From Chloroflexota bacterium (GTDB taxonomy: Bacteria > Chloroflexota > Dehalococcoidia > Lucifugimonadales > UBA2985), in contig JBDRIA010000013.1 in the NCBI GenBank assembly GCA_043816345.1, positions 1 to 59,730 on the forward strand: 59,730 nucleotides of DNA. The letters are read 5' to 3'. Made by a program: the position numbers and the translations under genes. Of the stretch, positions 2,454 through 59,580 are shown piece by piece; positions within the stretch are counted from its first letter, which is position 1, and each line of letters begins with the position of its first letter. The notes under the pieces are model-generated. The model was not told where the DNA came from, searched no databases, and worked only from the letters and a program-made list of their open reading frames with translations.

Positions 2454-3212
2454 TCAACCTCGTCCTATGTAAGGCATCTTTGTTGCCATTAGGGTCATGA
2501 ATTGAACATTGGTATCTAATGGAAGATTTGACATATACAGAATTGCTTCGGCCACGTGATTCACATCGAATGTAGGTTCAACTTCGATTGATCCATGAGC
2601 CTGTAATATCCCGTTTTTCATTGGCAAAGTCAGGTTTGTCTCTGCGTTACCAATGTCGATTTGACTGCAGGCGATGTTGTATTTGCGCCCGTCAAGAGCG
2701 ATTGACTTGGTCAGGCCGGTTACCGCATGTTTTGTAGCAGTATAGGGTGCGGAGTTCGGACGCGGGGTGGTAGCTGATATAGAGCCGTTATTGATGATGC
2801 GTCCACCCATCGGTGTCTGAGCCTTCATAATCTTGATGGCTTCCTGTGCGCACAGAAAAGTCCCTGTCAGATTAGTGTCCAAAACCGTTTTCCATTGGCT
2901 GTAAGTTAGGTCCTCAAATGGAATAGGTGGAGCGCCTGTTCCCGCGTTGTTAAACAGTACATCTAGGCGTCCAAATGTTTCATAGGTCTTGGCGAACAAG
3001 GCTTGAACAGACTGAGGGTCTCCTACGTCGGTCGGTACTGGTAGTGCGCGTGAACTGTAGTCCGCCGCCGCTTCCACCGTATCATGTAAAGTCTCCAAAC
3101 GGCGTCCTGCCAGGGCAACAGAATATCCATCTCTTAAGAGAGCCAGAGCAGAGTATTTACCGATGCCGGATCCTGCGCCTGTAACGATAGCGACTCTCCC
3201 ATTTGAATTCAT
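2454..3212 (-). CDS. Short-chain dehydrogenase/reductase (SDR)
   Basis: TGAGSGIGK Rossmann motif, NNAG, and catalytic YTATK (YxxxK). Confidence 0.9.
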
Positions 3213-3615
3213 ATCTGTGCAACCTCCAATTCATGTGAAGCAGTCATTTAGTTGGAGTATAACCTCAATTCAGAGAGAAATGCGAATTAGAAGCAAATAA
3301 TCTCACCTATATCCGTCTGTTCTCGGCATATCTTGAGCTGTATGCCACATAATGAGCTAAACAAAGCAAGACAAACAAACATAATCCAGCAATTAACGTA
3401 AACATCACCCTTCCACCCCAGAGAGCGAATCCATATCACCGTACTCCGTCAGGATCGCTGATTGTTGTCGGTGCTTGAGCGACAGCATGGTACCATCACC
3501 AACCCTTGGCTGGAGCGCCTGCCATTGACACACGGGTAAGCCGGACTTAGGATAGGCTAAAATCAGGGATGCTGACGGGCCGTTCTTCAATGTCCCTCTC
3601 ACCGGGAGGTTTTCT

Positions 3616-5119: not shown

Positions 5120-5947
5120 ATGGCGTTCGTGCAAGCAGGTCAGGTTCGGCTCGAGTACTTCGACGTGGGATATGACGGTAGAACGATGGTGCTGGTGCAT
5201 GGCGCCTCATCGTCTGCGCGCATCTGGCATATGGTACAGGAGCGCATGGCTGAGGCGGGCGTCCGTACCGTGGCTATAGGTATGCGCGGAGCGGGCGGGT
5301 CCGATCACACTCCTAACCGCGAGGACTACAACCCTGCGGCATATGCCAGAGACCTCGCGGCCGCCTTAAACGCGCTGAGTGTGAAGCGCTTTGCGCTGGT
5401 TGGCCATTCCCTGGGAGTCGCCACGGCGATTCACTTCATGCGCGACCACGCCGCGGATTTCGAAGTGCAGGCGTTGGTGTTGATGGCTGGCGGGGATGCC
5501 AGAGGGCGCCCACTGCCGACACCAGAGCAGATGCGCGAGCTTGAGGAGACCGTGGATTGTCCCCCTGCCGATGACGAGGGTACACGTCGGGCCCGGTGGA
5601 AACCGAATCACCTTGGCCTGCCCCCGGACATCCGAGATGATCTCTGGCGAGACATCCAGAACAACCCAAAAGAGCGAGTCCTTGGCCAAAGGCTGTGCGA
5701 GCGCCCGGACATGACAGCGGTGCTGGCTACCTTAACGGTACCGACGCTGGTGATGAGTGGTGATGCAGATGGCACCGTGCCGCTGGAGGCTACCCTGCGG
5801 AGTTTTCTGTCGCTTCCCTTGGAGCACCGCCATCTACACGGCTTCCATGGCGTCAGCCATTTCCCGAACGCGCACGTGCCGGACCAGGTGGCCGACGTTC
5901 TCCATCTGTTCATAGACGCGCACGTGCCCATACTGGAGAGCCCTTGA
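5120..5947 (+). CDS. Alpha/beta-fold hydrolase
   Basis: VLVHGASSS oxyanion region, GHSLG nucleophile elbow, C-terminal H. Confidence 0.8.
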   Translation: MAFVQAGQVRLEYFDVGYDGRTMVLVHGASSSARIWHMVQERMAEAGVRTVAIGMRGAGGSDHTPNREDYNPAAYARDLAAALNALSVKRFALVGHSLGVATAIHFMRDHAADFEVQALVLMAGGDARGRPLPTPEQMRELEETVDCPPADDEGTRRARWKPNHLGLPPDIRDDLWRDIQNNPKERVLGQRLCERPDMTAVLATLTVPTLVMSGDADGTVPLEATLRSFLSLPLEHRHLHGFHGVSHFPNAHVPDQVADVLHLFIDAHVPILESP

Positions 5948-6072: not shown

Positions 6073-6957
6073 GTGCGAGGCAGGCGAGTTGCACGCGTGA
6101 TTATAGGCAGTCCGGATCATATGCCAACTGCCTCATCCTGCATCAGGTCTTGGAGGTTGATCTTGAGAGAGAACCGGCTTCGCCAGCTACTGAACGATGG
6201 ACAACCATCCATCGGCACGCATGTCCACAGCATGTGGCCGTCTGTTGTAGAGGCAATTGGCCACACCGGAATGTTCGACTACGTCGAGTTCGTGGCCGAG
6301 TACGCTCCCTTTGACCTGTTTTCCTTGGACAACTTCTGCCGCGCCGTCGAGCTCTTCGACATGTCGTCGATGATCAAGGTGGACCAAGAGCCACGCGGCT
6401 TCCTGGCCCAGCGCGGGATCGGCGCTGGCTTTCAGAGCGTCCTGTTCGCCGACTGCCGATCGGCGGACGAGGTACGTGAGTGCGTACGGATAGCGCGCCC
6501 CGATACTCCCCAGGACGGTGGCACCTACGGTGCCAACTCCCGCCGTTTCACCTACAGGAGTATGGCCTATGGTGGCACTGCTGAACACGTACAGGCGATC
6601 CGCGATGTCGTAGTGGTGGCCATGATAGAAAAGCGCTCCGCGGTGGACGAGCTCGACGAGATCCTATCGATCGAAGGGCTGGATATGGTCCAGTGGGGAC
6701 CCTCCGACTACTCCATGAGCATCGGTCGGCCGGGCGAGACAGGAGTGCCGGAGGTTCAAGAGGCCGAGCGCAGGGTATTCGAGTCCGCGCTGAAGGCAGG
6801 TATACAGCCTCGGGCCGAGATTAGTAGCCCGGACGAGGCCAAGCGGTTTCTCGACATGGGGGTCCGCCACTTCTGTATAGGTACGGATATTAACATCCTG
6901 TACAACTGGTTGAGATCAAATGGCGATGCGCTCCGCAAGGCCGTCTCATACGCATAG
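6073..6957 (+). CDS. HpcH/HpaI-family 2-keto-3-deoxy-acid aldolase
   Basis: NRLRQLLNDGQPSIGTHV... N-terminus and a GLDMVQWGPSDYS region typical of the family. The true start is probably internal (about 6121-6160). Confidence 0.7.
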   Translation: MRGRRVARVIIGSPDHMPTASSCIRSWRLILRENRLRQLLNDGQPSIGTHVHSMWPSVVEAIGHTGMFDYVEFVAEYAPFDLFSLDNFCRAVELFDMSSMIKVDQEPRGFLAQRGIGAGFQSVLFADCRSADEVRECVRIARPDTPQDGGTYGANSRRFTYRSMAYGGTAEHVQAIRDVVVVAMIEKRSAVDELDEILSIEGLDMVQWGPSDYSMSIGRPGETGVPEVQEAERRVFESALKAGIQPRAEISSPDEAKRFLDMGVRHFCIGTDINILYNWLRSNGDALRKAVSYA

Positions 6958-7063: not shown

Positions 7064-8218
7064 TTGATGGATTCTATGAAAATCATCGTTGCTCCTCAGG
7101 CATTCAAAGGCACAGCGTCTGCCACTGCCGTCGCCAATGCAATCTGCCGAGGCGTCCTTTTGGCTGTGCCGAATGCTGATGTTGTCCCTATCCCCATCGC
7201 GGACGGTGGAAGCGGCACAGTCGAAGCTCTGGTATCTGCCACGGGAGGTCGATACATCAGTACGCTAACCAGCGACCCCTTGGATCGTCCGATTACCGCT
7301 CGTTGGGGCGTGCTGGGTGATGGCGAGACAGCTGTCATCGAAACTGCAGCCGCTTCCGGCCTATCGCTTCTTGAGACCTCCGAGCGTGACCCGACAAGGA
7401 CGACGACCAGAGGGACCGGCAATCTGATTCGGGCCGCGTTGGATGCGGGTTATCGCCGTATGCTGATCGGACTCGGTGATAGCGCCACCAACGACGCTGG
7501 AGTTGGTCTGGCTCAAGCTATCGGAATTCGTGCTCTGGATGATAAGGGCCATGACCTTCCCGCTGGTGGTGCAGCTTTAAGAAGTCTCCATTCCTTCGAT
7601 ATGAGTGGCATTCATCCGAGTCTCTCCTCTTCTACCATCACCGTGCTTTGTGATGTGACGAATCCCCTTTGCGGTTTGGATGGTGCGTCGGCCATCTTCG
7701 GCCCACAAAAGGGGGCAACCACCCAGCAGATTTCGCTGCTAGAGGCCGCCTTGACGCATTTTGCAGATGTAGTTGAAGCACAGCTAGGGTGCAACGTGCG
7801 TGATATCCCAGGAGCCGGAGCGGCCGGCGGACTGGGAGCGGGACTCGTAGCGTTCTGCGGCGCGGTGCTGCGGCCCGGTTTCGAGGTTGTCAGCAAGGCT
7901 CTGAATCTTACTGAGTCACTGGCTGGAGCAGACATTGTCTTGACAGGGGAGGGGCGCATCGATGCCCAGACGGCCGGCGGCAAAGGCGTTTCTGGTGTCG
8001 CTGCTCTTGCTAAGGAGTGTGGTGTTCCGTTGGTTGCCGCGATCGTCGGTGTAAACGAATTAGGTACAACTGAAGCGACATCCTTGGGTATTGATGGAGT
8101 CTTTGCTCTCGCGCGTTCATCGGAGCGGGTAATCGCCGACGCGGAGGCCACACCGCGTCTAATTGAGGCAACAGCGGCGCGTGCTGTCACAAGCCTCCTC
8201 AAAGGGAAGATGCGATGA
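7064..8218 (+). CDS. glxK: Glycerate kinase
   Basis: MKIIVAPQAFKGTASA... N-terminus and a C-terminal LTGEGRIDAQTAGGK motif. ATGs at 7067 and 7076 are alternative starts. Confidence 0.85.
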   Translation: MMDSMKIIVAPQAFKGTASATAVANAICRGVLLAVPNADVVPIPIADGGSGTVEALVSATGGRYISTLTSDPLDRPITARWGVLGDGETAVIETAAASGLSLLETSERDPTRTTTRGTGNLIRAALDAGYRRMLIGLGDSATNDAGVGLAQAIGIRALDDKGHDLPAGGAALRSLHSFDMSGIHPSLSSSTITVLCDVTNPLCGLDGASAIFGPQKGATTQQISLLEAALTHFADVVEAQLGCNVRDIPGAGAAGGLGAGLVAFCGAVLRPGFEVVSKALNLTESLAGADIVLTGEGRIDAQTAGGKGVSGVAALAKECGVPLVAAIVGVNELGTTEATSLGIDGVFALARSSERVIADAEATPRLIEATAARAVTSLLKGKMR

Positions 8219-9231
8219 TTACTGAAAGGCCTCGTGTTTTTGTCACGCGGAGATTGCCCCAGGAAATTCTGGATAGACTCGATGCGCACGTCTCGGTTGA
8301 CCTTTGGGACAGTGATCTTCCTCCGGACGTGCATAGCCTTCGGGAGCATGTCGCGCAAGCTGAAGGTCTGTTCTCTCTCCTGACCGATCGGATCGACACG
8401 GCCCTCCTGTCCGCTGCACCTTCTCTGCGCGTTGTCAGCAATATGGCCGTTGGCACCGACAACATCGAGCTTGCTTCAGCGACGGCCCGAGGGATCCCCG
8501 TGGGCAATACACCAGGGGTTCTAACAGAGACCACCGCGGACTTCACGTTTGCACTGCTCATGGCTGCTGCGCGCCGCGTCGTTGACGGCGATAACTTTGT
8601 CCGCGCGGGACACTGGAAGACCTGGGGGCCGAACGTATTGTTGGGACGCGACGTGTTTGGTGCGACTCTTGGAATTGTTGGGTTCGGTGCCATTGGTCAA
8701 GCAGTCGCACGCCGGGCCCAGGGGTTCTCCATGCGTGTCCTCTACATCGATCGCCCCTCTGCGCCTCCACCCCAGGGGGTTGATGCCACATTAGTATCAC
8801 TGGATACCCTGCTCCAGGAAGCGGACTTCGTTTCTCTCCACGTTTCACTCACCGAGGAAACGCGACACATGATCGGCTCTCGGGAGATGGCGTTGATGAA
8901 GGAGACAGCTATCCTCGTGAACACGGCGCGCGGCCCGGTTATTGATCAACAGGCACTTGTGGTCGCGCTCAGGCAGGGACGCCCTGCCAGGGCTGCATTA
9001 GACGTAACGGCCATCGAGCCCATAGATTCACAAGACGAGCTTCTTGCGCTGCCGAATGTCGTCATCACTCCTCATATTGCCAGTGCCAGTGTGGCCACCC
9101 GCCTTCGCATGGCGAACATGGCGGTCGATAATTTACTGGCTGGCCTTGTGGGAAGGCTGCTTCCCAACTGTGCCAATCCAGAGGTCTATCAGGGCGGGAA
9201 GAGCGGGAGTACCGCAAGTCCCGCTTCGTGA
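8215..9231 (+). CDS. D-2-hydroxyacid dehydrogenase (glyoxylate/hydroxypyruvate reductase-like)
   Basis: GIVGFGAIGQAVARRA NAD-binding site, NTARGPVID, ITPHIASAS. ATGA overlap with the glycerate kinase gene. Confidence 0.85.
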   Translation: MITERPRVFVTRRLPQEILDRLDAHVSVDLWDSDLPPDVHSLREHVAQAEGLFSLLTDRIDTALLSAAPSLRVVSNMAVGTDNIELASATARGIPVGNTPGVLTETTADFTFALLMAAARRVVDGDNFVRAGHWKTWGPNVLLGRDVFGATLGIVGFGAIGQAVARRAQGFSMRVLYIDRPSAPPPQGVDATLVSLDTLLQEADFVSLHVSLTEETRHMIGSREMALMKETAILVNTARGPVIDQQALVVALRQGRPARAALDVTAIEPIDSQDELLALPNVVITPHIASASVATRLRMANMAVDNLLAGLVGRLLPNCANPEVYQGGKSGSTASPAS

Positions 9232-14826: not shown

Positions 14827-16179
14827 TCACCCCCGTGGGCGACGTGATGGAGACGCTGGTTTCCGAGCCAGGAGGATGAGGGTGGCTGCCAGGAAGTTCA
14901 CCACTGCCAGGCCGAGGAAGGGGAGGAAATAGCTGCCCAGAGTATCGAAGAGGTAGCCCACCACGATAGGGCCACCCATCCCGATGATGTTCATGGGCAG
15001 TTGTGAGACCCCTAGAATCGTGGCGAAATTCTTTCTACCAAAGTAGTCCCCTCGTATGGCTATCAGCAAGGGCACCCTTCCGCCAAAGCCGATGCCGAAC
15101 AGTATGGCGAAGAGAAAGGCCGCAGGAACTGTGCTCATGAACACCGCAGTCAACATACCGGTCGCCTGCATGGCAACAAAGAAGGTGATAAGCGTGCGCT
15201 TCGGAAAGTGGTCACCGATGATGCCTGCTACAAGCTGGGCCAACAATGCCGCGAAGGTATAGGTGGCCACCACCGTTCCCGCCATCGGGAGGGACATTCC
15301 CATATCCGTCAAGGCGGGTACGATGTGGACGGAGACGGTAACGAAGACGGCAGCCGCGAAACCATGGCACATAGTGATGAACCAGAAGGCAGGGGTCCGC
15401 AGGGCTTCTCCCACGGTGAAGCTGGTGTCATCCTCATTCGCTGCCTCATTTGTAGTGGCATCGGCTACCGAGGGATCAGGAGCAGGGTCGCCGTCGGGGC
15501 GGAGACCATACTCCTCCGGGCGGTTGCGCACCGACATAGCGATGGGTATGGCCAGAGCCCATGTGCCAAGCCCCAACCCCAGGGCAGTGGCCCTCCAGCC
15601 GCAGGAGATGGCCAACCAGGCCAGGGCAGGCACCAACAGCCCCCCCATGCTTTGCCCGGTCATACCTATGGCCATGGCCGTAGCCCGCCGGCGTACGAAC
15701 CAGTGATTGAGGGTTGTCATCAGTGGGAGGAATCCGGCCAGGCCAGCGCCCGCGTAGATGAGCAGGAAGGCCAAATAGAAGCCGACGGCGTTCTGAATGA
15801 GGCTGAGACCGATTAACCCCACTCCAAGTATCATCAACCCGATGAAGATCATGCGGCGGGCCCCCAGGCGATCGGTGAGGAAACCCTCCAGAGGTCCCAG
15901 CAGGGCCCCCTCGGCGCGGCTGAGAGAGAAGGCGCCGGCAAGGAGCGCGCGGCTCCACCCGAAGTGGCGCTCTAGGGCCACGAAGAAAACGCCCAAGCCC
16001 TGCATGGTGGGGCCCATCACTACGGCCATGGTGAACGCGGTGAGTGCCACCAGCTTCCATCCGTAGAAGATGTGGGGGGGTCTTGCGAATCGAAGGGTTC
16101 TACCTGCTAATTGGCGCATAAGAGATGTGCTTGGAGGAATCCATGAGATTCTACCACACGGGGGACATTCTGTCGGCAT
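14827..16179 (-). CDS. MFS transporter (oxalate/formate antiporter-like)
   Basis: GPLEGFLTDRLGARR loop motif and multiple TM segments. The N-terminal extension is uncertain. Confidence 0.8.
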   Translation of the reverse strand: MPTECPPCGRISWIPPSTSLMRQLAGRTLRFARPPHIFYGWKLVALTAFTMAVVMGPTMQGLGVFFVALERHFGWSRALLAGAFSLSRAEGALLGPLEGFLTDRLGARRMIFIGLMILGVGLIGLSLIQNAVGFYLAFLLIYAGAGLAGFLPLMTTLNHWFVRRRATAMAIGMTGQSMGGLLVPALAWLAISCGWRATALGLGLGTWALAIPIAMSVRNRPEEYGLRPDGDPAPDPSVADATTNEAANEDDTSFTVGEALRTPAFWFITMCHGFAAAVFVTVSVHIVPALTDMGMSLPMAGTVVATYTFAALLAQLVAGIIGDHFPKRTLITFFVAMQATGMLTAVFMSTVPAAFLFAILFGIGFGGRVPLLIAIRGDYFGRKNFATILGVSQLPMNIIGMGGPIVVGYLFDTLGSYFLPFLGLAVVNFLAATLILLARKPASPSRRPRG

Positions 16180-16330
16180 GGGGATCGAGCTTCTCGCCTG
16201 GCAGGTACGCCCCTATGCTGCTACAACGGTGCCGCCTGCCGATGTAATCACATCGAAAGCAACTCCTAATTCAGTTTATGGGACAGGCTCAAAGGCACGG
16301 CATAAGGCCGCGTCTCCATCGACTTCTCGG

Positions 16331-17062
16331 TCACCGCAGCCGTATGTATCGGAAAGACTCGGCATAGCTCATGGCGTGGGCACTCCCCACTTCCGCGCAC
16401 CGCCCCTTGATTCGTTCCGCCATGCCCTGCAGCCGCTCCGGGTCTTTCCCTACCTGGGACTTGTGCTCGTACAGTGCTGCGATCTTGACGTCAATGGTGT
16501 CGGCGATGTCCACCCAGACGGTGGCATTGGGGCCTTGCGCGCCCAGGTACACCTCCAGGGTCTTGTGGGGCATGAGGCCCTCTTCGGCGATGAGTTCTGG
16601 GAAAACGTGGTAGTCCCGGGCCGAGGGGAAGACGGCATCCAGGGCGGCGTTTCCTGCGGCCCGATGGTCCGGGTGGTTGATGTAGCCATCGCTGTAGCGC
16701 ATGGTGGGGTCCTGGCAGACCAGCACGTCGGGCTTGTAGCGGCGAATCTGGCGCACCAGGTCCCTGCGCAGCTCCAGGGTGTTCTGGAGAGTGCCGTCGG
16801 GATAGCCTAGGAAGACCACGTCCTTAGCGCCCACGACCGCGGCGGCGGCGCGTTGCTCCCTCTCCCGGATGATTGCCAACTTCTCTGGCTTCATCTCTGG
16901 GTCGGAGCTGCCCTTGTCCCCACTTGTGCACAGGACGTAGTAAATCTCGCTGCCCTGGCGCGCCCACTTGGCCAGTGTGCCGGCGGCCATGTACTCTCCG
17001 TCGTCTGGGTGGGCCACAATGAGCATGACCCGTTTGGCATCTCCGCTAGCAGACTCAACCAT
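16331..17062 (-). CDS. PIG-L/LmbE-family N-acetylglucosaminyl deacetylase
   Basis: VAHPDDGE zinc motif and a later HPDH motif. Confidence 0.85.
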   Translation of the reverse strand: MVESASGDAKRVMLIVAHPDDGEYMAAGTLAKWARQGSEIYYVLCTSGDKGSSDPEMKPEKLAIIREREQRAAAAVVGAKDVVFLGYPDGTLQNTLELRRDLVRQIRRYKPDVLVCQDPTMRYSDGYINHPDHRAAGNAALDAVFPSARDYHVFPELIAEEGLMPHKTLEVYLGAQGPNATVWVDIADTIDVKIAALYEHKSQVGKDPERLQGMAERIKGRCAEVGSAHAMSYAESFRYIRLR

Positions 17063-50538: not shown

Positions 50539-50624
50539 ATCCACCTATCCCGCTCACCCTGAGCTTGTCGAAGGGCCGTTCCGAAATGTTTGAAGAATGA
50601 GTGCCACGCACAAGGAGGTCTCAC

Positions 50625-51398
50625 ATGCCCACGCCCATCGTCGCTGGAAACTGGAAGATGAACACCACCCTGGCCGAGGCCGTAGCTCTGGCTTCCGAGA
50701 TGCGCGAGGCCCTGGAGGCTATTCGCGGAGTGGAGAAGGTGGTGTGTCCACCCTTTATCTCGCTGAAGGCCGTGAAGGACGTGGTGGAGGGTACATCAAT
50801 CAGGGTAGGTGCACAGAACATGCACTACGAGGAGAAGGGGGCCTACACAGGCGAGGTGTCGCCGGGGATGCTGGCGGGGCTGTGCCAGTACGTCATTCTG
50901 GGCCACTCGGAGCGGCGGCAGTATTTCGGGGAGACGGACGCGGCGGTGAACCGGAAGATAAAAGCCGCGCTGGGTGTGGGGCTGCGTCCTTCCGTTGAAG
51001 GACTGCGTCCCATCCTGTGTGTTGGGGAGCGATTGGAGGAGCGAGAAGCGGGCAGGGCGGAGGAGGTGGTGACGGGGCAGCTGCGGGGAGCACTGGACGG
51101 CGTGTCGTCCAGTGACACTCTGGCTGTGGCCTACGAGCCGATATGGGCCATCGGGACGGGGATTGCTGCGACGGCGGAGGACGCCGAGGCTATGATGGGA
51201 GCCATACGCCGTACCCTGACGGAGATGTACGGCGAGGCTGCGGCTCAGGAGGTGCCTTTGCTGTACGGGGGCAGCGTGACCCCTGCCAATGCCGCCGAGT
51301 ATGCCAGCCAGCCCAACGTGAACGGCGCGCTGGTGGGGGGAGCCAGCCTCAACGCTGTGAGCTTTGTGGAGATCGCGCGGCAGATGGCGGAGGGGTAG
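50625..51398 (+). CDS. tpiA: Triosephosphate isomerase (with a 7-aa in-frame insertion)
   Basis: AGNWKMN, GHSERR, YEPIWAIGTG, GGAS. AAGGAGG lies before ATG 50625. Confidence 0.95.
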   Translation: MPTPIVAGNWKMNTTLAEAVALASEMREALEAIRGVEKVVCPPFISLKAVKDVVEGTSIRVGAQNMHYEEKGAYTGEVSPGMLAGLCQYVILGHSERRQYFGETDAAVNRKIKAALGVGLRPSVEGLRPILCVGERLEEREAGRAEEVVTGQLRGALDGVSSSDTLAVAYEPIWAIGTGIAATAEDAEAMMGAIRRTLTEMYGEAAAQEVPLLYGGSVTPANAAEYASQPNVNGALVGGASLNAVSFVEIARQMAEG

Positions 51399-51436: not shown

Positions 51437-52081
51437 ATGAGTATGGCAAGCGATGAACTAATCAGGTTGATTGCAGATCTGAAGAAAAGGGAATCAGAGT
51501 TTGTGTCGAAGGGGATTGCCATGATGACGTTCAACCCTTCTATAGGACGTGTAATGGAAAAGGGGACGGTGCGCAAGTTTGAGGAATTGGCCTGGGAGGA
51601 AGTTCAAAAACTCGTCCGTGTTAAATCGCTAGGTGAGTTTGACGAGTTTCACGACGACTTTGTGAGTAAGGTGATGGAAGCAATTGCCACCAACAAAGGT
51701 GCGAAAGTCTCATACGGCGAGGCACAAAAGCCCATAAACGTGTTCCTCAAAGTTTATGTAGGGTGGGCACATCTCCCCGATAGCACGACAGCAGACAGAT
51801 TGAGGCCCTTTTTGCACGTGCCTCTGGATAGTGTAATGATGAAGAACTTTAGGAAGGATTTCCCCATCCCCTACAACCAATTCGTTCTTACGACCATTGA
51901 CGCCATACGAAGAAAGGCAAACATAGAAGAACTGAGCGACCGGGTTTTCTTAAGCCTAAACATGATCCTCATTAAGGACCATTATTATGCCTGGCAAAAG
52001 CTCTTCAGAAACCTCTACCCTGAGAGTCCCGTGTTCCTCGATTTCGTATGGTCACTTGAAAGAAGGAAGCAAACAGACTGA
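51437..52081 (+). CDS. Orphan hypothetical protein
   Basis: AGGAGG RBS with ATGs at 51437 and 51443. AT-richer than both neighbours. No domain recognised. Confidence 0.6.
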   Translation: MSMASDELIRLIADLKKRESEFVSKGIAMMTFNPSIGRVMEKGTVRKFEELAWEEVQKLVRVKSLGEFDEFHDDFVSKVMEAIATNKGAKVSYGEAQKPINVFLKVYVGWAHLPDSTTADRLRPFLHVPLDSVMMKNFRKDFPIPYNQFVLTTIDAIRRKANIEELSDRVFLSLNMILIKDHYYAWQKLFRNLYPESPVFLDFVWSLERRKQTD

Positions 52082-52135
52082 AATGCTTGACAGGGGGTAA
52101 GAGAGGTTGGTTTGTTAGCCATTAACAATGTTCTT

Positions 52136-53089
52136 ATGTCCCCTTACCCCCTTATAGCCATCGTTGGGCCGACGGCGGCGGGCAAGAGCGGGCTGGCGTT
52201 GGAGTTGGCTCGGCGCTTCGGTGGCGAGATTGTCAACGGGGACAGCCGCCAGGTGTACCGTCACATGGACATCGGCACCGCCAAGCCATCGGTGCAAGAA
52301 CGCAGCCTCGTTCCCCATCACCTGGTGGACATCGTAGACCCCGATGAGCCTTACAGCCTGGCCCTGTACCTGGCCCAGGCGCGCGAGGCCGTCCAGGACA
52401 TCCAGGGCCGGGGCAGGTTGCCCCTTCTGGTGGGCGGCACGGGGCAGTATATCTGGGGTCTCCTGGAGGGCTTTCACGCGCCCCAGGTCCCTCCCAACCC
52501 ATCGCTGAGGGCGCGGCTGGAGGCGGAGGCCAGGGAAGAAGGGCACGAGGCCCTGTGGCGGCGGCTTCAGGCTGTGGACTCTGCGGCGGCGTCCCGCATA
52601 GACCCTCGGAACGTACGTCGGGTGGTGCGCGCCCTGGAGGTGTACGACGAAACGGGAATACCCTTCTCCCAGGCCCAGGGACGGGAGGAGCCGCCGTACC
52701 ACAGCCTGGTCATTGGCCTGACGATGGAGAGGCCGCGGCTGTATGAGCGCATCGACCGTCGGGTGGAGGCGATGGTGGCAGGGGACTGGCCCCAGGAGGT
52801 GGCGCATCTCTTGGAGAAGGGGTACTCTCCCGAGCTGCCGTCCATGTCCAGCCTGGGGTATCGTGAGATGGCGGCATACATAAGGGGTGAGCTGTCCCTG
52901 GAGGAAGCCGTGGCTCGAATCAAGACGGCTACCCATCGTTTTGCGCGGCACCAGTACGCCTGGTTCCGTCTCAGGGACCCTCGCATCCACTGGCTGGATG
53001 CAGGCGGATCAGAGGCGACTATTCGCGCCGTGCAGTGTGTCGAAACCCATTTGATAGGGTCTAGGCATCCTATGGTAGAATCTAGGTGA
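52136..53089 (+). CDS. miaA: tRNA dimethylallyltransferase
   Basis: GPTAAGKS P-loop and DSRQVYRHMDIGTAKP. Confidence 0.95.
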   Translation: MSPYPLIAIVGPTAAGKSGLALELARRFGGEIVNGDSRQVYRHMDIGTAKPSVQERSLVPHHLVDIVDPDEPYSLALYLAQAREAVQDIQGRGRLPLLVGGTGQYIWGLLEGFHAPQVPPNPSLRARLEAEAREEGHEALWRRLQAVDSAAASRIDPRNVRRVVRALEVYDETGIPFSQAQGREEPPYHSLVIGLTMERPRLYERIDRRVEAMVAGDWPQEVAHLLEKGYSPELPSMSSLGYREMAAYIRGELSLEEAVARIKTATHRFARHQYAWFRLRDPRIHWLDAGGSEATIRAVQCVETHLIGSRHPMVESR

Positions 53090-53242
53090 TGCAGGAGGTG
53101 CTTACGTGCTGCGATTGCTAATGGGTCTGACAATAGGAGTATACCTGGGATTCCACGCTCCCCAGTACATTCGCCAGTGTCGTGAGAAGTGCCACAGATG
53201 TCTTGAAGAGTGGCACAACGAGGCTCACAGGGAGGAAGCCGG

Positions 53243-54092
53243 GTGAGGTTTACCAAGATGCACGGCGCGGGCAACGACTACGTCGTGATAGATGCTCGCG
53301 GCTTCAATGTCGACTGGCCGTCTCTGGCCAGGGCCATGTGCGACCGTCACATGGGAGTGGGAGCCGATGGCATTCTACTGGTCTTGCCTTCGGACTCGGC
53401 GGACGTGCGGATGCGGATGTTCAACCCGGACGGCTCGGAGGCGGAGATGTGTGGCAACGGCATACGATGTCTGGCCAAGTACGCTCTGGAGCGAGGCATA
53501 GTTGAGGGAGGCAAGGGGCCACCTGGAGGTGGAGACAAAGGCAGGGATTCGTGTCCTAGAGCCTGTCTGGCAGGACGGTAAGGTCGCCCGGGCGCGAGTG
53601 GGCATGGGTGAGGCGGAGCTGCGTCCTGAGGAGGTTCCAGTCGCTCTCCCCGAGGGGATTATTGAAGGGCCAGTGATAGACTATCCCCTGACGGTGGAAG
53701 ATGTGGAGCTGAAACTTACCTTTGTCTCCATGGGCAATCCCCACGCCGTCGCCTTCGTCGAAATGCCCGTGGAGGAGTTTCCGCTTCATCGCATCGGGCC
53801 GCAGGTGGAGCGCCATGCTATGTTCCCGAAGCGCGTGAACTTCTCTATTGTAAATGTGGGTGATTGGAGCGGTCTCACGGCGCGGGTATGGGAGCGGGGG
53901 GCAGGGGAGACGATGGCCTGCGGAACGGGAGCCTGCGCCATCGCCGTGGCCTCCAGGCTGCACGGCTACTCCGGCAACGATGTTGACATAATGCTGCCAG
54001 GGGGCACCCTTGGGATCGCCCTGGACAGAAGAGGGCAGGTATGGCTCGAAGGGCCAGCGGAGGAGGTTTTCGAGGGCGATTGGGATGGATGA
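53243..54092 (+). pseudogene. dapF: Diaminopimelate epimerase gene interrupted by a 1-nt frameshift near 53505-53510
   Basis: The N-terminal half ([13 protein letters not shown] .. MCGNGIRC) is in one frame. The C-terminal half ([12 protein letters not shown] .. MACGTGACA) is in the +1 frame. GTG start with a GGAGGAAG RBS. Confidence 0.8.
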
Positions 54093-54116: not shown

Positions 54117-54440
54117 ATGAAGGTTTCCTTCCCCCACGGAACGACCAAAGATAGAGCGCTGGAGGAGTTGAAGGCCAACAACTCCAAGCTGATGGCCCGG
54201 TTTGGCACAGAGATATCTGGGCTCCAGCAGGAGTGGCAAGAGAACGGGTTGACCTTCTCCTTCAGGGCGCAAGGAGTTGCCATTTCGGGTAAGTTGGCCG
54301 TGGGGGAGGAACACGTGGAGTTGGAGGCGGAGTTGCCTCGGTGGGCAAGGCTTTTTGAAGGACAAGTCCGGGAGAGGGCGTTGCAGGTTATGCAGGAGAT
54401 TTTTACATCGGAGATGCACGATAAGGAGCAGAGCGCATGA
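54117..54440 (+). CDS. Small protein resembling the polyhydroxyalkanoic-acid-system family (tentative)
   Basis: 107 aa with the pattern F.F.A.G..ISG.L.V.E..V.LE..LP. Recognised by eye only. Confidence 0.45.
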   Translation: MKVSFPHGTTKDRALEELKANNSKLMARFGTEISGLQQEWQENGLTFSFRAQGVAISGKLAVGEEHVELEAELPRWARLFEGQVRERALQVMQEIFTSEMHDKEQSA

Positions 54441-54524
54441 AGTTCGCCAATCGCATAGACCAGCTCCCACCGTACCTGTTTGTGGAGATCAGCCGCAAGA
54501 TAGCCCAGAAGCGGGCCGAGGGGG
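54438..54524 (+). pseudogene. Duplicated 5' end of dapL (30 codons then stop), the left direct repeat of the ParA cassette
   Basis: 83/87 identical to 56039..56125. Keeps the ATGA overlap with the upstream gene. Confidence 0.9.
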
Positions 54525-54530
54525 GTTAGC

Positions 54531-55499
54531 TTGGCCAAACGCATTAGCATTATCAACTTCAAAGGTGGGGTAGGCAAAACTACGTTGGCGTTCCATTTGG
54601 CAACGGGACTCGCCCGATACCATGACGGCAAGCGAGTGCTCCTAATCGACATAGACCACCAAAGCAGCCTCTCGATCGTTTGTCTGGGAGATGTCGCCAA
54701 GTGGCAAGCCGCTGTCAGAGGTGACAGAACCATAAACAGGGTATTTCAACATTTGACGATGCCTGGGTCAGCTATGCCAGGCACAGAGATTGTAATCAAG
54801 AGCCCTATACCTAGAAATCGTTATCCTACCCTAGACCTAGTGCCGGCAGCTCTGCAACTCGACGATACCGAAATTAAATTGACAGCATCTCAAGTTGGTG
54901 ATGCCATCACTTCCGAATGGACGAAGAGAACGTTGCTTTGTCAGTGGCTAGAGTCAACAGGTGTTGATAATGAATACGATTACATCATTGTTGACTGTCC
55001 GCCCGCAACGAAGATCGTGACGCAAAATGCGATTGCGCTGAGCCACGGCTATATCGTCCCTGTCATACCAGAAGCAGTGATGGAACGCGGTGCCCCACAC
55101 CTGGTTGATTTGATTCAAGATGGCATAGATGGAATGCTCCAGCGCTATGCCCAATTTCTGGGCACCGGAGCTACCTCTGTACCAGGTACTTATGTGCCCG
55201 ATACTGAACTAATTGGCTTGGTAGTAACCAGGATAAAAACCGCAAGGGGATATTCAGGATACAGTGACAACCATACTCAACATCTGCGTGTCCTACAAAG
55301 GCGATGGGATAGCGACCTGGTGACTCCTTACATTGAGGATGGCGTCGGAATCGGAGAGTCGTTGACCATGGGGCTTCCTGTATATGACCGAGAGCGCACC
55401 TCCTCCGGAGGGCTAACCCAAAATGTAGGAAAGCGCGGCTTTGGTGACCAATTCAGAAGCCTAGTAGACAACCTGAAAGCAAGGATCGATGCGCTGTGA
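54531..55499 (+). CDS. ParA/MinD-superfamily ATPase
   Basis: Deviant Walker A NFKGGVGKTT, LLIDIDHQ, and Walker B YIIVDCPPA. TTG start. Confidence 0.85.
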   Translation: MAKRISIINFKGGVGKTTLAFHLATGLARYHDGKRVLLIDIDHQSSLSIVCLGDVAKWQAAVRGDRTINRVFQHLTMPGSAMPGTEIVIKSPIPRNRYPTLDLVPAALQLDDTEIKLTASQVGDAITSEWTKRTLLCQWLESTGVDNEYDYIIVDCPPATKIVTQNAIALSHGYIVPVIPEAVMERGAPHLVDLIQDGIDGMLQRYAQFLGTGATSVPGTYVPDTELIGLVVTRIKTARGYSGYSDNHTQHLRVLQRRWDSDLVTPYIEDGVGIGESLTMGLPVYDRERTSSGGLTQNVGKRGFGDQFRSLVDNLKARIDAL

Positions 55500-56026
55500 A
55501 CCCCGATAGAAAACAGAACCAGCGTCCGGTTGTAATGGCTGATACAGCAGAGCAGCAAGCGGCAGGGGCTCTTTCTGTGAAAGACCTATCGGACGCTCTT
55601 CAGGATTTTGCCCGTGTGTATAGGAATCCCCGGACAGGAAATCCAAAGCTCGCGGATGCCCTAAACAAACTTAGTAGAGTTTTGCAGAGGTACTCCAGCC
55701 ATAATGTCGACGAAGTACTAGCGGGACTGACTGTTGTATCCCGCCACAAGCCTGGCAAAAAGAACGTTCAAGTCAGCCACCTCCGAGGCATAGACTTAGC
55801 CTCTATAGACCTAACAAAGGCCAAAGAGTTGTTGCATACTCAAGAACTGACCAAAATGGACTTAATTCGAATCGCGTATGAACGATTTGGAATGCCGAAA
55901 TCCCGGTTAGAGCGTCAAAACAGAGCAGCAGTGCTCGATGCCATCGACGCTGCCTTGAGGAATGAGGAGGCTCTGGACATCATCTCGGAAGAAGCTCGAC
56001 GCGAAGGTTCTCGCCGTTCTCGATAG
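55496..56026 (+). CDS. Hypothetical partner protein of the ParA-like ATPase
   Basis: GTGA overlap with the ATPase gene. 176 aa, helical and charged, no recognisable domain. Confidence 0.6.
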   Translation: MNPDRKQNQRPVVMADTAEQQAAGALSVKDLSDALQDFARVYRNPRTGNPKLADALNKLSRVLQRYSSHNVDEVLAGLTVVSRHKPGKKNVQVSHLRGIDLASIDLTKAKELLHTQELTKMDLIRIAYERFGMPKSRLERQNRAAVLDAIDAALRNEEALDIISEEARREGSRRSR

Positions 56027-56038
56027 TGGAGGTGTTCC

Positions 56039-57217
56039 ATGAAGTTCGCCAATCGCATAGACCAGCTGCCGCCGTACCTGTTTGTGGAGATCAGTCGCAA
56101 GATAGCCCAGAAGCGGGCCGAAGGGGTCGACGTGGTCACCTTCGCTATTGGTGACCCGGATATTCCGACTCCGTCTCACATCTTGAATCGCCTGCACGAG
56201 GCGAGCAATGACCCTCCCAATCATCGCTATCCGGAGTCGGAGGGCCTGCCGGAGCTGCGCCGTGCCATTGCCCAGTGGTATGAGAGCCGCTTCGGTGTGG
56301 TTCTGGACCCGGACAAGGAGGTGCTGCCCCTCATCGGTGCCAAGGAAGGCATTGGGCACGCCGCCCTGTGCTTCATAGACCCCGGGGATGTGGCTCTTGT
56401 CCCGGATCCCGGCTATCCCGTCTACTCCGTGGGTACCCTTTTCGCCGGGGGTGAGTGTCACTGGATGCCCCTGCTGGAGGAGAATCAATGGCTTCCAGAC
56501 CTGAAGGCCATCCCTACGGACGTGGCAGAAAAAGCCAAGGTCCTGTGGATCAACTATCCCAACAACCCTACAGGTGCGATTGCCGGAGAGGGGTTCTTCG
56601 AGGAGGTGGTGGCCTTCGCCCGTCGCTACAATATTCCTGTGCTCCACGATGCCCCATACACGGAGGTAGCCTACGACGATCATAGGCCCGCGAGCTTCCT
56701 ACAGGTGCCAGGGGCCAAAGAGGTGGGCATGGAGTTTCACTCTCTGTCCAAGAGCTACAATATGACTGGGTGGCGCATAGGCATGGCCGTGGGGAATGCC
56801 GACATGATCAATGCCCTGATGCGGGTGAAATCCAACCTGGACTCTGGGATACCCCAGGCAATCCAGTATGCCGCAATAGAGGCCCTGCAAGGTCCCCAGG
56901 ACTGTATCCAGGAGCACAACCGAATATACCAGAGACGCCGAGACAAAGTGGTGGCAACGCTGAGGCAGATAGGGCTGGAGGTGGCCGTTCCGAAGGCCAG
57001 CCTCTATGTCTGGGCCAAACTTCCCCCGGGATGGAAATCGGGAGCCTTTTCTGCTCTGCTGATTGAGGAGAAGGACATTGTGGTGACGCCTGGGGCCGGC
57101 TACGGCAGATATGGCGAGGGGTACATTCGACTGTCTCTGACCATCGCCGATGACCAGCTAGAAAAGGGGCTGGAACGCCTGGCGTCCTGGCGGATACCCG
57201 ACCCGCCCTCCAGCTAG
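56039..57217 (+). CDS. dapL: LL-diaminopimelate aminotransferase
   Basis: MKFANRIDQLPPYLFVEISRK.. N-terminus and class-I aminotransferase SLSKSYNMTGWRIG PLP-lysine motif. Confidence 0.9.
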   Translation: MKFANRIDQLPPYLFVEISRKIAQKRAEGVDVVTFAIGDPDIPTPSHILNRLHEASNDPPNHRYPESEGLPELRRAIAQWYESRFGVVLDPDKEVLPLIGAKEGIGHAALCFIDPGDVALVPDPGYPVYSVGTLFAGGECHWMPLLEENQWLPDLKAIPTDVAEKAKVLWINYPNNPTGAIAGEGFFEEVVAFARRYNIPVLHDAPYTEVAYDDHRPASFLQVPGAKEVGMEFHSLSKSYNMTGWRIGMAVGNADMINALMRVKSNLDSGIPQAIQYAAIEALQGPQDCIQEHNRIYQRRRDKVVATLRQIGLEVAVPKASLYVWAKLPPGWKSGAFSALLIEEKDIVVTPGAGYGRYGEGYIRLSLTIADDQLEKGLERLASWRIPDPPSS

Positions 57218-59006: not shown

Positions 59007-59580
59007 CTACCCCCCAGCAAGCTGGGGGGCATCTGGCCGTGCTACCGCTTTTCAAACATGGCCAGTTGCCGAGGATTGTCCTCATGTCTTTGATACTTGA
59101 TGTATTTCCTGATCACGTCTGCCGTTACTTTGTCCCCTACACTCCTCACGAAGTACCCGTCACTCCATATCTTTCCCGACCACATCGCCTTCCTCATCTT
59201 GGGGAACTTCTTGTATACTTCACGTGCAGATATGCTCTTCAGTATCTGTACCAGTCGCGCAGGAGAATACGCCGGCGCCGCCTCGATGAATACGTGCACG
59301 TGGTCTTCCATAACCTCCATCGTATCTATATGAAACTCGTATTCCTCCGCAATCCGTTTAAACACCTCTTTCAGGTACTCGCTAACCTCCCCATCCAAGT
59401 CGTGTGCTCGATATTTCGGCACCCATACCAGATGGTACTTCAGATCGTATACAGCGTGTTTGGTCCTTCTTATCCCCACCCAGACTTTATATCATCTCCT
59501 CCACTGCCCAGACAATCCTTCCCTGCTCGCCTTACGGCGACCCGCTTTCCTCCCGTCAGCAAGCTGACGGGTATCCAGCG
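59007..59580 (-). mobile_element. IS200/IS605-family element (tnpA only, boundaries approximate)
   Basis: TnpA is flanked by two subterminal hairpins with the same apex: CCCCCCAG-caag-CTGGGGGG (59010..59029) and CCCGTCAG-caag-CTGACGGG (59552..59571). Confidence 0.7.
59042..59479 (-). CDS. tnpA: IS200/IS605 Y1 (HUH) transposase
   Basis: YHLVWVPKYR, the HUH motif DHVHVF, and the catalytic-Tyr region SDGYFVRSVG. Confidence 0.9.
   Translation of the reverse strand: MGIRRTKHAVYDLKYHLVWVPKYRAHDLDGEVSEYLKEVFKRIAEEYEFHIDTMEVMEDHVHVFIEAAPAYSPARLVQILKSISAREVYKKFPKMRKAMWSGKIWSDGYFVRSVGDKVTADVIRKYIKYQRHEDNPRQLAMFEKR

Follow-up and report, generated by a model that had tools for sequence, protein, structure and literature searches.

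The question raised by this locus is how two genes came to lie inside the 5' end of another gene, and what they do there. In contig JBDRIA010000013.1 of a Chloroflexota bacterium (assembly GCA_043816345.1), whose positions 1 to 59,730 constitute the stretch of DNA analysed here and are called the window, the 5' end of dapL, the gene for LL-diaminopimelate aminotransferase of the essential lysine pathway, occurs twice as a direct repeat, and between the two copies there are a gene for a ParA/MinD-type ATPase and a gene for a small partner protein, together called the cassette. The best joint explanation, to which a probability of about 0.6 is given, is that a horizontally acquired, promoterless cassette was imported by a recombinase-free route together with the dapL 5' end of a donor, and that its two genes constitute a positioning or partition-like pair. 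Loci in other genomes and contigs are referred to below by L numbers.

A two-gene cassette in the 5' end of dapL

The features of the locus are as follows (nt, nucleotides; aa, amino acids; ORF, open reading frame).

54117..54440, + strand: gene of the PHA_gran_rgn family (Pfam PF09650, 38.6 bits; "PHA-like gene" below), whose stop overlaps the left dapL' ATG as ATGA, the ancestral junction
54436..54524, + strand: left repeat copy, the resident-type dapL 5' end
54437..54529, + strand: dapL', a truncated mini-ORF of 30 codons, then TAG at 54527-54529
54525..54530, + strand: new left joint GTTAGC, between dapL codon 30 and the ATPase start
54531..55499, + strand: gene for the ParA/MinD-type ATPase, 322 aa, TTG start
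55496..56026, + strand: gene for the partner protein, 176 aa, with a GTGA overlap with the ATPase gene
56027..56038, + strand: 12-nt spacer TGGAGGTGTTCC, which gives dapL a new ribosome-binding site
56038..56126, + strand: right repeat copy, the donor-type dapL 5' end
56039..57217, + strand: intact dapL, LL-diaminopimelate aminotransferase, 392 aa (TIGR03540, 596.7 bits, cutoff 593; PRK09276, 610 bits)

The direct repeat is 89 nt long and identical at 85/89 positions (flank-versus-flank blastn, E = 2e-37), and no third copy was found in the 59.7-kb window. Each copy begins one base before a dapL ATG, which lies at 54437-54439 on the left and at 56039 on the right, and from this ATG both copies encode MKFANRIDQLPPYLFVEISRKIAQKRAEG. 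A preliminary description of the locus, made from the sequence alone, had already reported these repeats, and they are real, with the correction that the left ATG is at 54437 and not at 54438, a slip of one base. What it had read in the left copy (the ATGA overlap with the PHA-like gene and a stop after 30 codons), in the right copy (an intact dapL with GGAGG 6 nt 5' of its ATG) and in the insert (an ATPase with the motif KGGVGKTT, a partner joined to it by a GTGA overlap, and no recombinase) was borne out.

The insert between the repeats is 1,514 nt long and consists of the two overlapping genes, so that only 6 nt + 12 nt (18 nt) are non-coding and there is no room for a recombinase gene; neither a recombinase gene nor an attC-type site was found inside the repeat-bounded segment. 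The guanine + cytosine (GC) content of the insert is 0.49-0.52, as against 0.57-0.63 in both flanks. A single nt separates the TAG of the left stub from the TTG start of the ATPase gene, and 12 nt separate the partner gene from dapL; therefore, four reading frames are chained one to the next. The last codons of the dapL' mini-ORF are GAGGGGGG, which, judged from the spacing, would serve as a Shine-Dalgarno-like run, the mini-ORF probably being a coupling leader for the ATPase. At other loci, the ATPase gene starts with ATG and is preceded by an AT-rich leader of 25-150 nt with GGAGG; this native upstream leader and promoter are not present at the left joint of the window, and promoter and terminator searches of the window insert gave nothing above chance. 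With no promoter of its own, the cassette of the window, which lies inside the operon of dapF, the PHA-like gene, dapL and hflX, must therefore presumably be read from that dap operon. In addition, dapL now appears to rely on the imported GGAGG and no longer on the ancestral coupling to the PHA-like gene, and the 89-nt repeats would permit RecA-dependent excision with exact loss of the cassette.

A search for relatives with an uninterrupted junction, which the preliminary description had proposed, was made via homologues of the PHA-like protein and located empty sites in three contig sets (L099, L094-L098 and L093), so the arrangement of the window is not fixed in related genomes. Their gene order is tpiA, X, miaA, dapF, PHA-like gene, dapL and hflX, and the stop of the PHA-like gene overlaps the uninterrupted dapL by the 4 nt ATGA. 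The aa identity of their DapL to that of the window is 93.4% in L099 and 90.5% and 88.5% in the other two sets. When the junctions are aligned, the left junction of the window is the same as the empty site up to dapL nt 88-89, and the right copy picks up the empty-site sequence after dapL nt 89. The insertion is real, and it is recent, because relatives whose DapL is 88-93% identical have the empty site.

The two repeat copies differ at dapL nt 30, 33, 57 and 84, and all four differences (4/4) are synonymous and at third positions. The left copy carries at nt 30, 57 and 84 the base common to all three empty-site relatives; the right copy is derived at these positions (G30, T57 and A84) and matches the shared base of the relatives only at nt 33. 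Counted in synonymous changes, the copies are about half as far from each other as from L099. Decay in place of a dead left stub was considered and rejected, since it predicts that most changes, including non-synonymous ones, are in the left copy, and the opposite was found. Because 4/4 of the differences are synonymous and 3/4 are derived in the right copy, the simplest reading suggests that a related donor supplied the right copy as a functional allele, which arrived already joined to the cassette. Sliding identity to the relatives detected no imported tract inside dapL.

L002, an independent contig of a metagenome-assembled genome from a distant member of the Chloroflexota, shows that the predicted donor-type arrangement of cassette and dapL exists: in this contig the partner stop is followed by a short purine-rich spacer, TGAAGGGAGTAGGCTT, which resembles the window spacer TGGAGGTGTTCC, and then by dapL. 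The dapL of L002 is 69% (aa) and 70% (nt) identical to that of the window and the fragment of the partner gene is 84% identical (nt), and the synonymous divergence (dS) between the two is 0.52 for the partner and 1.56 for dapL; because of this difference, the cassette must have moved between lineages after the lineages split, and it lies at the same place in both.

The route proposed for the insertion is as follows. The donor would be a close relative with the cassette already about 10 nt upstream of its dapL, and the incoming DNA would comprise the ATPase gene, the partner gene, the spacer and the dapL 5' end. Homologous recombination through dapL would account for the right side, and on the left side an illegitimate join would have been made in codon 30 of the resident dapL, probably where codons 28-30 and the ATPase leader have a G-run in common. 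Either a linear fragment, via homology-facilitated illegitimate recombination, or a circularised fragment, via Campbell integration, could bring this about, the product being identical. The first 89 nt of the resident dapL would thereby remain as the 30-codon stub leading into the ATPase gene, the donor dapL 5' end with its GGAGG would restore an intact dapL, the join would have removed the native leader and left GAGGGGGG and the TTG start, and no element-encoded recombinase would take part. The left joint does sit in a G-run, a GGGGGG run is found upstream of the ATPase gene in the relative L104, and the closest ATPase relatives (e.g., L104) have a purine-rich or G-rich Shine-Dalgarno sequence upstream of the start at the corresponding place; this suggests a join by microhomology on the left. 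A published account of homology-facilitated illegitimate recombination exists (PMC3240628), and this mechanism was invoked for the capture of modules (PMC5361080), and the integration route here is most likely of this already-known, recombinase-free kind. The locus resembles the effector-immunity modules of the Vibrio cholerae type VI secretion system (T6SS) and the Rhs loci in that a conserved stretch anchors one side, the other end is illegitimate and an orphan fragment is left behind (PMC5361080, PMC3240628), but the orphans of those loci are 3' regions or immunity genes, whereas the orphan here comprises the 5' 89 nt of a biosynthetic gene that is essential, and a ParA-type pair makes up the cargo. 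The window would thus be an unusually clean natural case of recombinase-free gene capture for which empty sites are available, and in which the 5' end of a resident essential gene was displaced and a donor copy put in its place.

The ATPase, its partner and their distribution

[quoted passage not shown] It matches Pfam AAA_31 with 111.8 bits (cutoff 27) and CbiA with 57.2 bits (cutoff 25.4) and phrog_164 of PHROGs with 2.7e-41, its closest solved relatives in a PDB profile search are Soj and ParA proteins, and it stays below every NCBIfam equivalog cutoff, including that of ParA_partition (NF041546, 76.7 bits vs a cutoff of 180). The deviant Walker A motif KGGVGKTT with the signature lysine is at residues 11-18, and in an alignment of 25 sequences the Walker A, A' and B motifs are invariant, with 83 invariant columns in all. 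The protein has all the catalytic motifs of an active ParA-type ATP-sandwich dimer and is predicted to be active. More than 1,400 homologues score <1e-20, of which the best 120 are 56-70% identical over the full length; more than 100 homologues across phyla are 57-71% identical to the ATPase of the window. Overall, the ATPases are 50-70% identical across phyla, and the taxon names on some of the homologues are Caldilineaceae, Acetobacteraceae and Sphingomonadales.

The partner has no match in Pfam, NCBIfam, PHROGs or PADLOC models, and scanning of 53 members of its family gave only sub-threshold matches to HTH_26, AbiEi_4 and HTH_7 (those to HTH_26, which are weak, in 7/53). A word-indexed search gave only five relatives, a profile search of 1.84 billion representatives gave 369 clusters at 50% identity, all about 150-180 aa long, and among GTDB species genomes a narrow partner alignment matched only one Dehalococcoidia chromosome. 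The AlphaFold2 model made from the 53-sequence alignment (predicted local distance difference test, pLDDT, 88) starts with a low-confidence N-terminus (residues 1-25, pLDDT 55-59). Then come three helices that form one domain (about residues 27-80) and bear a conserved TGNP motif, a flexible linker of low confidence, and a second helical domain at the C-terminus (about residues 100-175), in which the pattern TK..L..LG..RFGI.RS.L.R is conserved; an Arg-rich end, R.G..RSS, is nearly universal. At least three Lys + Arg residues are present among the first 20 residues in 74% of the members, and 98% carry a net positive charge on the last 12 residues. Foldseek against the PDB and BFVD gave nothing below E = 0.1, either with a first model (pLDDT 69) or with the good one (pLDDT 88), and a PDB sequence profile search with the partner gave only designed coiled coils. 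The partner is therefore not a recognisable ParB- or ParG-type protein in the Pfam, NCBIfam, PHROGs, PDB sequence and fold searches, in agreement with the preliminary description, which had recognised no domain in it. A likeness of the C-terminal domain to the SAP/Rho_N helix-extended-helix motif was seen by eye, was backed by no scan and was dropped. Between the window and L002 the dN/dS ratio of the partner is about 0.28, and the cassette genes are judged to be intact and under constraint. No description of the ATPase-partner pair was found in the literature, and the cassette family appears to be undescribed, neither a family model nor a structural relative nor a paper on it having been found.

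To follow the pair further, 80 metagenome loci retrieved with the ATPase alignment, plus loci retrieved earlier, were examined. Wherever a locus has sufficient DNA downstream, the ATPase gene is followed directly by an ORF of the partner family, recognised by a hidden Markov model, and in most cases the two overlap by 4 nt. The GC content of the cassette departs from that of its flanks in most loci, by up to 0.2 and in either direction (0.455 vs 0.63 in L001, 0.467 vs 0.66 in L062 and 0.537 vs 0.40 in L022), and several of the carriers are chromosome-sized contigs of 2.5-6.2 Mb. The pair is absent from 72,556 plasmids (PLSDB) and 50,697 phages (INPHARED), in which the best ParA is <=30% identical, and some loci adjoin defence genes; in accordance with the preliminary description, this is not an ordinary plasmid par locus. 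IMG/VR contains two contigs with the pair, one of which is a foreign-GC island in a 65% GC background and the other of which has methyltransferases, not phage structural genes, at the flanks of the pair; therefore, these contexts lend no support to a phage-borne origin. The places of insertion include those after thiD and before ileS (L001), after thiD (L005), between nuoH and nuoI (L007) and 24 nt after a MaoC-like gene (L104), and restriction islands as well. From these sequence comparisons, the cassette is regarded as a new, widespread mobile module.

Some of the individual loci have features of their own. In L001, a Dehalococcoidia chromosome, genes of the Uma2 family (PDDEXK) are found at 8440-9000, 2931-3386 and 15897-16409, within 20 kb, together with an N6_N4 methyltransferase gene and an IS1595 fragment, which suggests that the region of the cassette is variable, and in L101 two methyltransferases adjoin the pair.

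Function of the pair and route of insertion weighed

ParA/MinD ATPases are general positioning engines of bacteria, each of which is normally tied to a cargo encoded nearby. By analogy with them, the most likely role of the pair is that of a self-contained module based on the nucleoid, for positioning or a partition-like task. In ParA/MinD systems it is generally through a charged, disordered N-terminus that the partner touches the ATPase and stimulates it, the remainder of the protein binding the cargo (PMC10241942); likewise, the N-terminus of the present partner, which appears to be charged and disordered, would contact and stimulate its ATPase, and the C-terminal domain, which is weakly helix-turn-helix (HTH)-like, and the Arg-rich tail are possibly for DNA binding.

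Known systems resemble the pair in part. The type Ib plasmid pairs (ParF/ParG, and delta/omega of pSM19035) likewise have a deviant-Walker-A ATPase that starts at the P-loop, with a small co-translated partner next to it; however, the ATPase here exceeds theirs by about 100 aa and reaches <=30% identity with any plasmid or phage ParA, its partner is not a ribbon-helix-helix protein but is built of helices alone, in two domains, and neither centromere repeats nor a catalogued plasmid or phage carrier was found. In HpaAB of Haloferax volcanii, too, two genes form an operon, one for a bacterial-type ParA that was acquired horizontally and one for a lineage-specific partner, which is a centromere-binding, focus-forming protein that meets the ATPase via its N-terminal domain (bioRxiv 10.1101/2025.11.19.689047). 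As HpaAB indicates, hybrid systems with an unrecognisable partner can be true partition systems; HpaAB, however, sits on and maintains the replicon pHV3, whereas the pair here stands alone as a chromosomal cassette with no replicon of its own. A fast-evolving, small partner is also found in McdAB and other ParA/MinD cargo-positioning pairs, whose partners have a charged, disordered N-terminus, as the present one appears to have, and are so diverse that many of the ATPases are called orphans (PMC10241942). McdAB-type systems adjoin their cargo genes, whereas no conserved neighbour is found here, and only at the P-loop does the ATPase resemble McdA (E 4e-6).

This clade is distinct in being highly conserved across phyla, always with one undescribed partner family, in travelling as a bare cassette of about 1.5 kb into chromosomes, including essential operons, and in its absence from the plasmid and phage collections searched. 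The pair may either position something not recognised so far or be a ParA-based conflict or addiction system, and either would add a new use to the ATPase family.

Several points weigh against the joint explanation. ParA/MinD positioning systems are normally encoded near their cargo (PMC10241942), so the lack of a conserved neighbour at the pair would be unusual for them: 137 flanking ORFs fall into 113 Pfam families, with no recurrent third gene or cargo gene. No tandem, direct or inverted centromere-like repeat arrays were found in window positions 54300-56300, and the centromere-like repeats for which the preliminary description had proposed to look in the insert were not found above chance; upstream palindromes across 67 loci were only marginally above a shuffled control. 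No replicon of its own is associated with the pair. The HTH similarity of the partner stays sub-threshold, and the net charge of its N-terminus is above zero in only 51% of the members. A conflict or addiction module would be about as compatible with the mobility of the cassette, its anomalous GC content and the defence neighbours, which are present in roughly 8 of about 35 well-flanked loci as a raw count without a genome-wide background. As for the route, neither the arrangement in the donor nor the left junction in a genome of the L002 type was recovered; therefore, both the microhomology at the G-run and the proposed import direction depend on four variable sites, which by rough binomial reasoning give p of about 0.03-0.05. 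Occupancy of the same site in L002, at 70% nt identity of dapL, would be hard to obtain by one-step homologous recombination and could mean a site preference. Moreover, dapF, directly upstream, is broken by a frameshift, and therefore the sequence quality of the window is not to be taken for granted.

A possible alternative, to be held tentatively, is that the pair is a conflict module, that is, an anti-phage or anti-plasmid defence, exclusion or toxin-antitoxin-like addiction system in which the ATPase would be the sensor or effector and the HTH-like partner the regulator, and whose spread would be driven by immunity selection or selfish retention, not by cargo positioning. It would agree with a self-contained, overlapping two-gene operon of aberrant GC content in most genomes, with very variable contexts and no conserved third gene, and with the weak AbiEi_4/HTH_26 similarity of some partners; MinD/ParA-like domains are effector modules in other conflict systems (PMC7159879). 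Restriction or defence genes are, in addition, immediate neighbours at some loci: a restriction enzyme of type III in L042 and a restriction-modification enzyme of type IIG in L047, a mad3/mad8-like protein (L020), PDC-S02 (L039), SIR2_2 (L013), GmrSD with integrases (L006), Uma2/PDC-S03 (L001) and the two methyltransferases of L101. Nevertheless, the count of such neighbours has no genome-wide background to be read against, many loci, the window included, lie within housekeeping operons (dap, nuo, thi/ileS) and not in defence islands, and no nuclease, protease, NADase or other effector domain was found. Furthermore, PADLOC-DB v2 matches only the P-loop end of the ATPase (PDC-M28B, E 2.4e-6), and the partner not at all. 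The stronger claim, that the pair is the first stand-alone, ParA-based immunity or selfish system, recombinase-free, riding on homologous gene ends and acting through a nucleoid-bound ParA ATPase, is considered unlikely.

Phages that integrate into gene ends carry a replacement gene end, and by the same token the cassette might be a non-autonomous integrative element, for which a recombinase acting in trans would target the dapL 5' end, the repeats would be attL and attR, and a replacement dapL 5' end would be carried along. This is quite improbable. The direct repeats do begin exactly at the dapL start codon, if the one base shared before it is left aside, the polymorphism pattern puts the crossover at the distal end of the repeat, the cassette of L002 is at the same dapL position (cassette dS 0.52 vs dapL dS 1.56), an IS200-type Y1 transposase gene lies 3 kb away, and long flanking repeats bracket the cassette in L065 and L022 too. 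On the other hand, the insert has no recombinase, the 6 + 12 nt outside its genes leave no room for recombinase binding sites, the other members are at unrelated sites (thiD, ileS, nuoH/nuoI, the MaoC-like gene and restriction islands), no terminal sequence or hairpin is common across loci, and the repeats of the three repeat-flanked loci differ in sequence and length.

Long flanking repeats are found in 3/33 well-flanked loci, with lengths of 63, 89 and 254 nt and mutually unrelated sequences. That of L065 is a non-coding direct repeat of 254 nt, 85% identical, at 5582-5834 and 7491-7743, which brackets the cassette; no tRNA or other non-coding RNA was found under the flanking repeats of L065 and L022, the L065 repeat has no match to a tRNA or an Rfam family, and an integrase remnant seen by eye in L065 was not confirmed by Pfam. 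Among about 65 loci, no sequence is conserved immediately outside the two genes, except that the close sub-lineage L017, L018 and L022 shares some. In these three loci (L017, 2142-3757; L018, 5778-7414; L022, 5923-7519), a unit of about 1.6 kb is shared in unrelated flanks; besides the two genes it includes 60-75 nt on their upstream side and 50-110 nt on the downstream side. The unit opens with GTTATGC, and the inverse complement GCATAAC is found about 85 nt past the partner stop, near the end of the similarity in L022, the two being a possible candidate for a short terminal inverted repeat; a conserved stretch containing TTGACA follows right after the partner stop.

L007, a Caldilineaceae contig, provides a further comparison, since a direct repeat of the nuoH 3' end (115 nt, 97% identical; 6617-6731 and 7735-7849) brackets not the cassette but an unrelated Rce1/CPBP-like gene directly upstream of it, inside the nuo operon. 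Because this repeat brackets an unrelated gene, the duplication of a gene end is a general scar of acquisition and not a property of the cassette. An element-specific integrase is disfavoured because there is no recombinase in the insert, no conserved sequence outside it, varied contexts, and only rare and unrelated repeats. Between the two routes that the preliminary description had considered, import with a dapL 5' fragment is thus favoured by the polymorphisms and the lack of conserved ends, and insertion targeted to the gene end keeps a small likelihood, because the cassette of L002 occupies the same place and a preference for the dapL site could lie behind it.

That the locus is an assembly artefact, a two-strain chimera or a mis-join at the repeat, is hardly credible, since, although the window looks like a metagenome-type contig and the dapF frameshift upstream shows that errors exist, the copies differ at four sites, all synonymous, a pattern that a repeat collapsed or duplicated in assembly does not give, the two sides of the left joint have no more than a 5-6-nt G-run in common, far under assembler overlap lengths, the cassette genes are intact and full-length compared with their homologues, and the adjacency of cassette and dapL is also present in the independent assembly L002.

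Other features near the insertion

The window contains several other features in the neighbourhood of the cassette. dapF (53210-54092), judged against the 282-aa DapF of the relatives, is split by a frameshift near 53506-53511, so that residues 1-88 and 90-282 are in different frames; for this break, in the gene next upstream of the insertion, there are two readings, an error of sequencing and a pseudogene. On the other side, 3 kb downstream of the insertion, the IS200-type Y1 transposase gene mentioned above is at 59042-59479 (- strand; Pfam Y1_Tnp, 140 bits), and no link between it and the cassette was found. A low-GC (0.45-0.50) orphan ORF without a family match is at 51440-52081, between tpiA (50601-51398) and miaA (52112-53089), and in L094 the same slot holds an unrelated DUF8426 gene; by this comparison, the tpiA-miaA interval, which lies 3 kb upstream of the cassette, is taken as a second slot of variable content. 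Finally, a 46-aa ORF at 53106-53246, upstream of dapF, is kept in L094 and is likely to be a real gene for a small hydrophobic protein.

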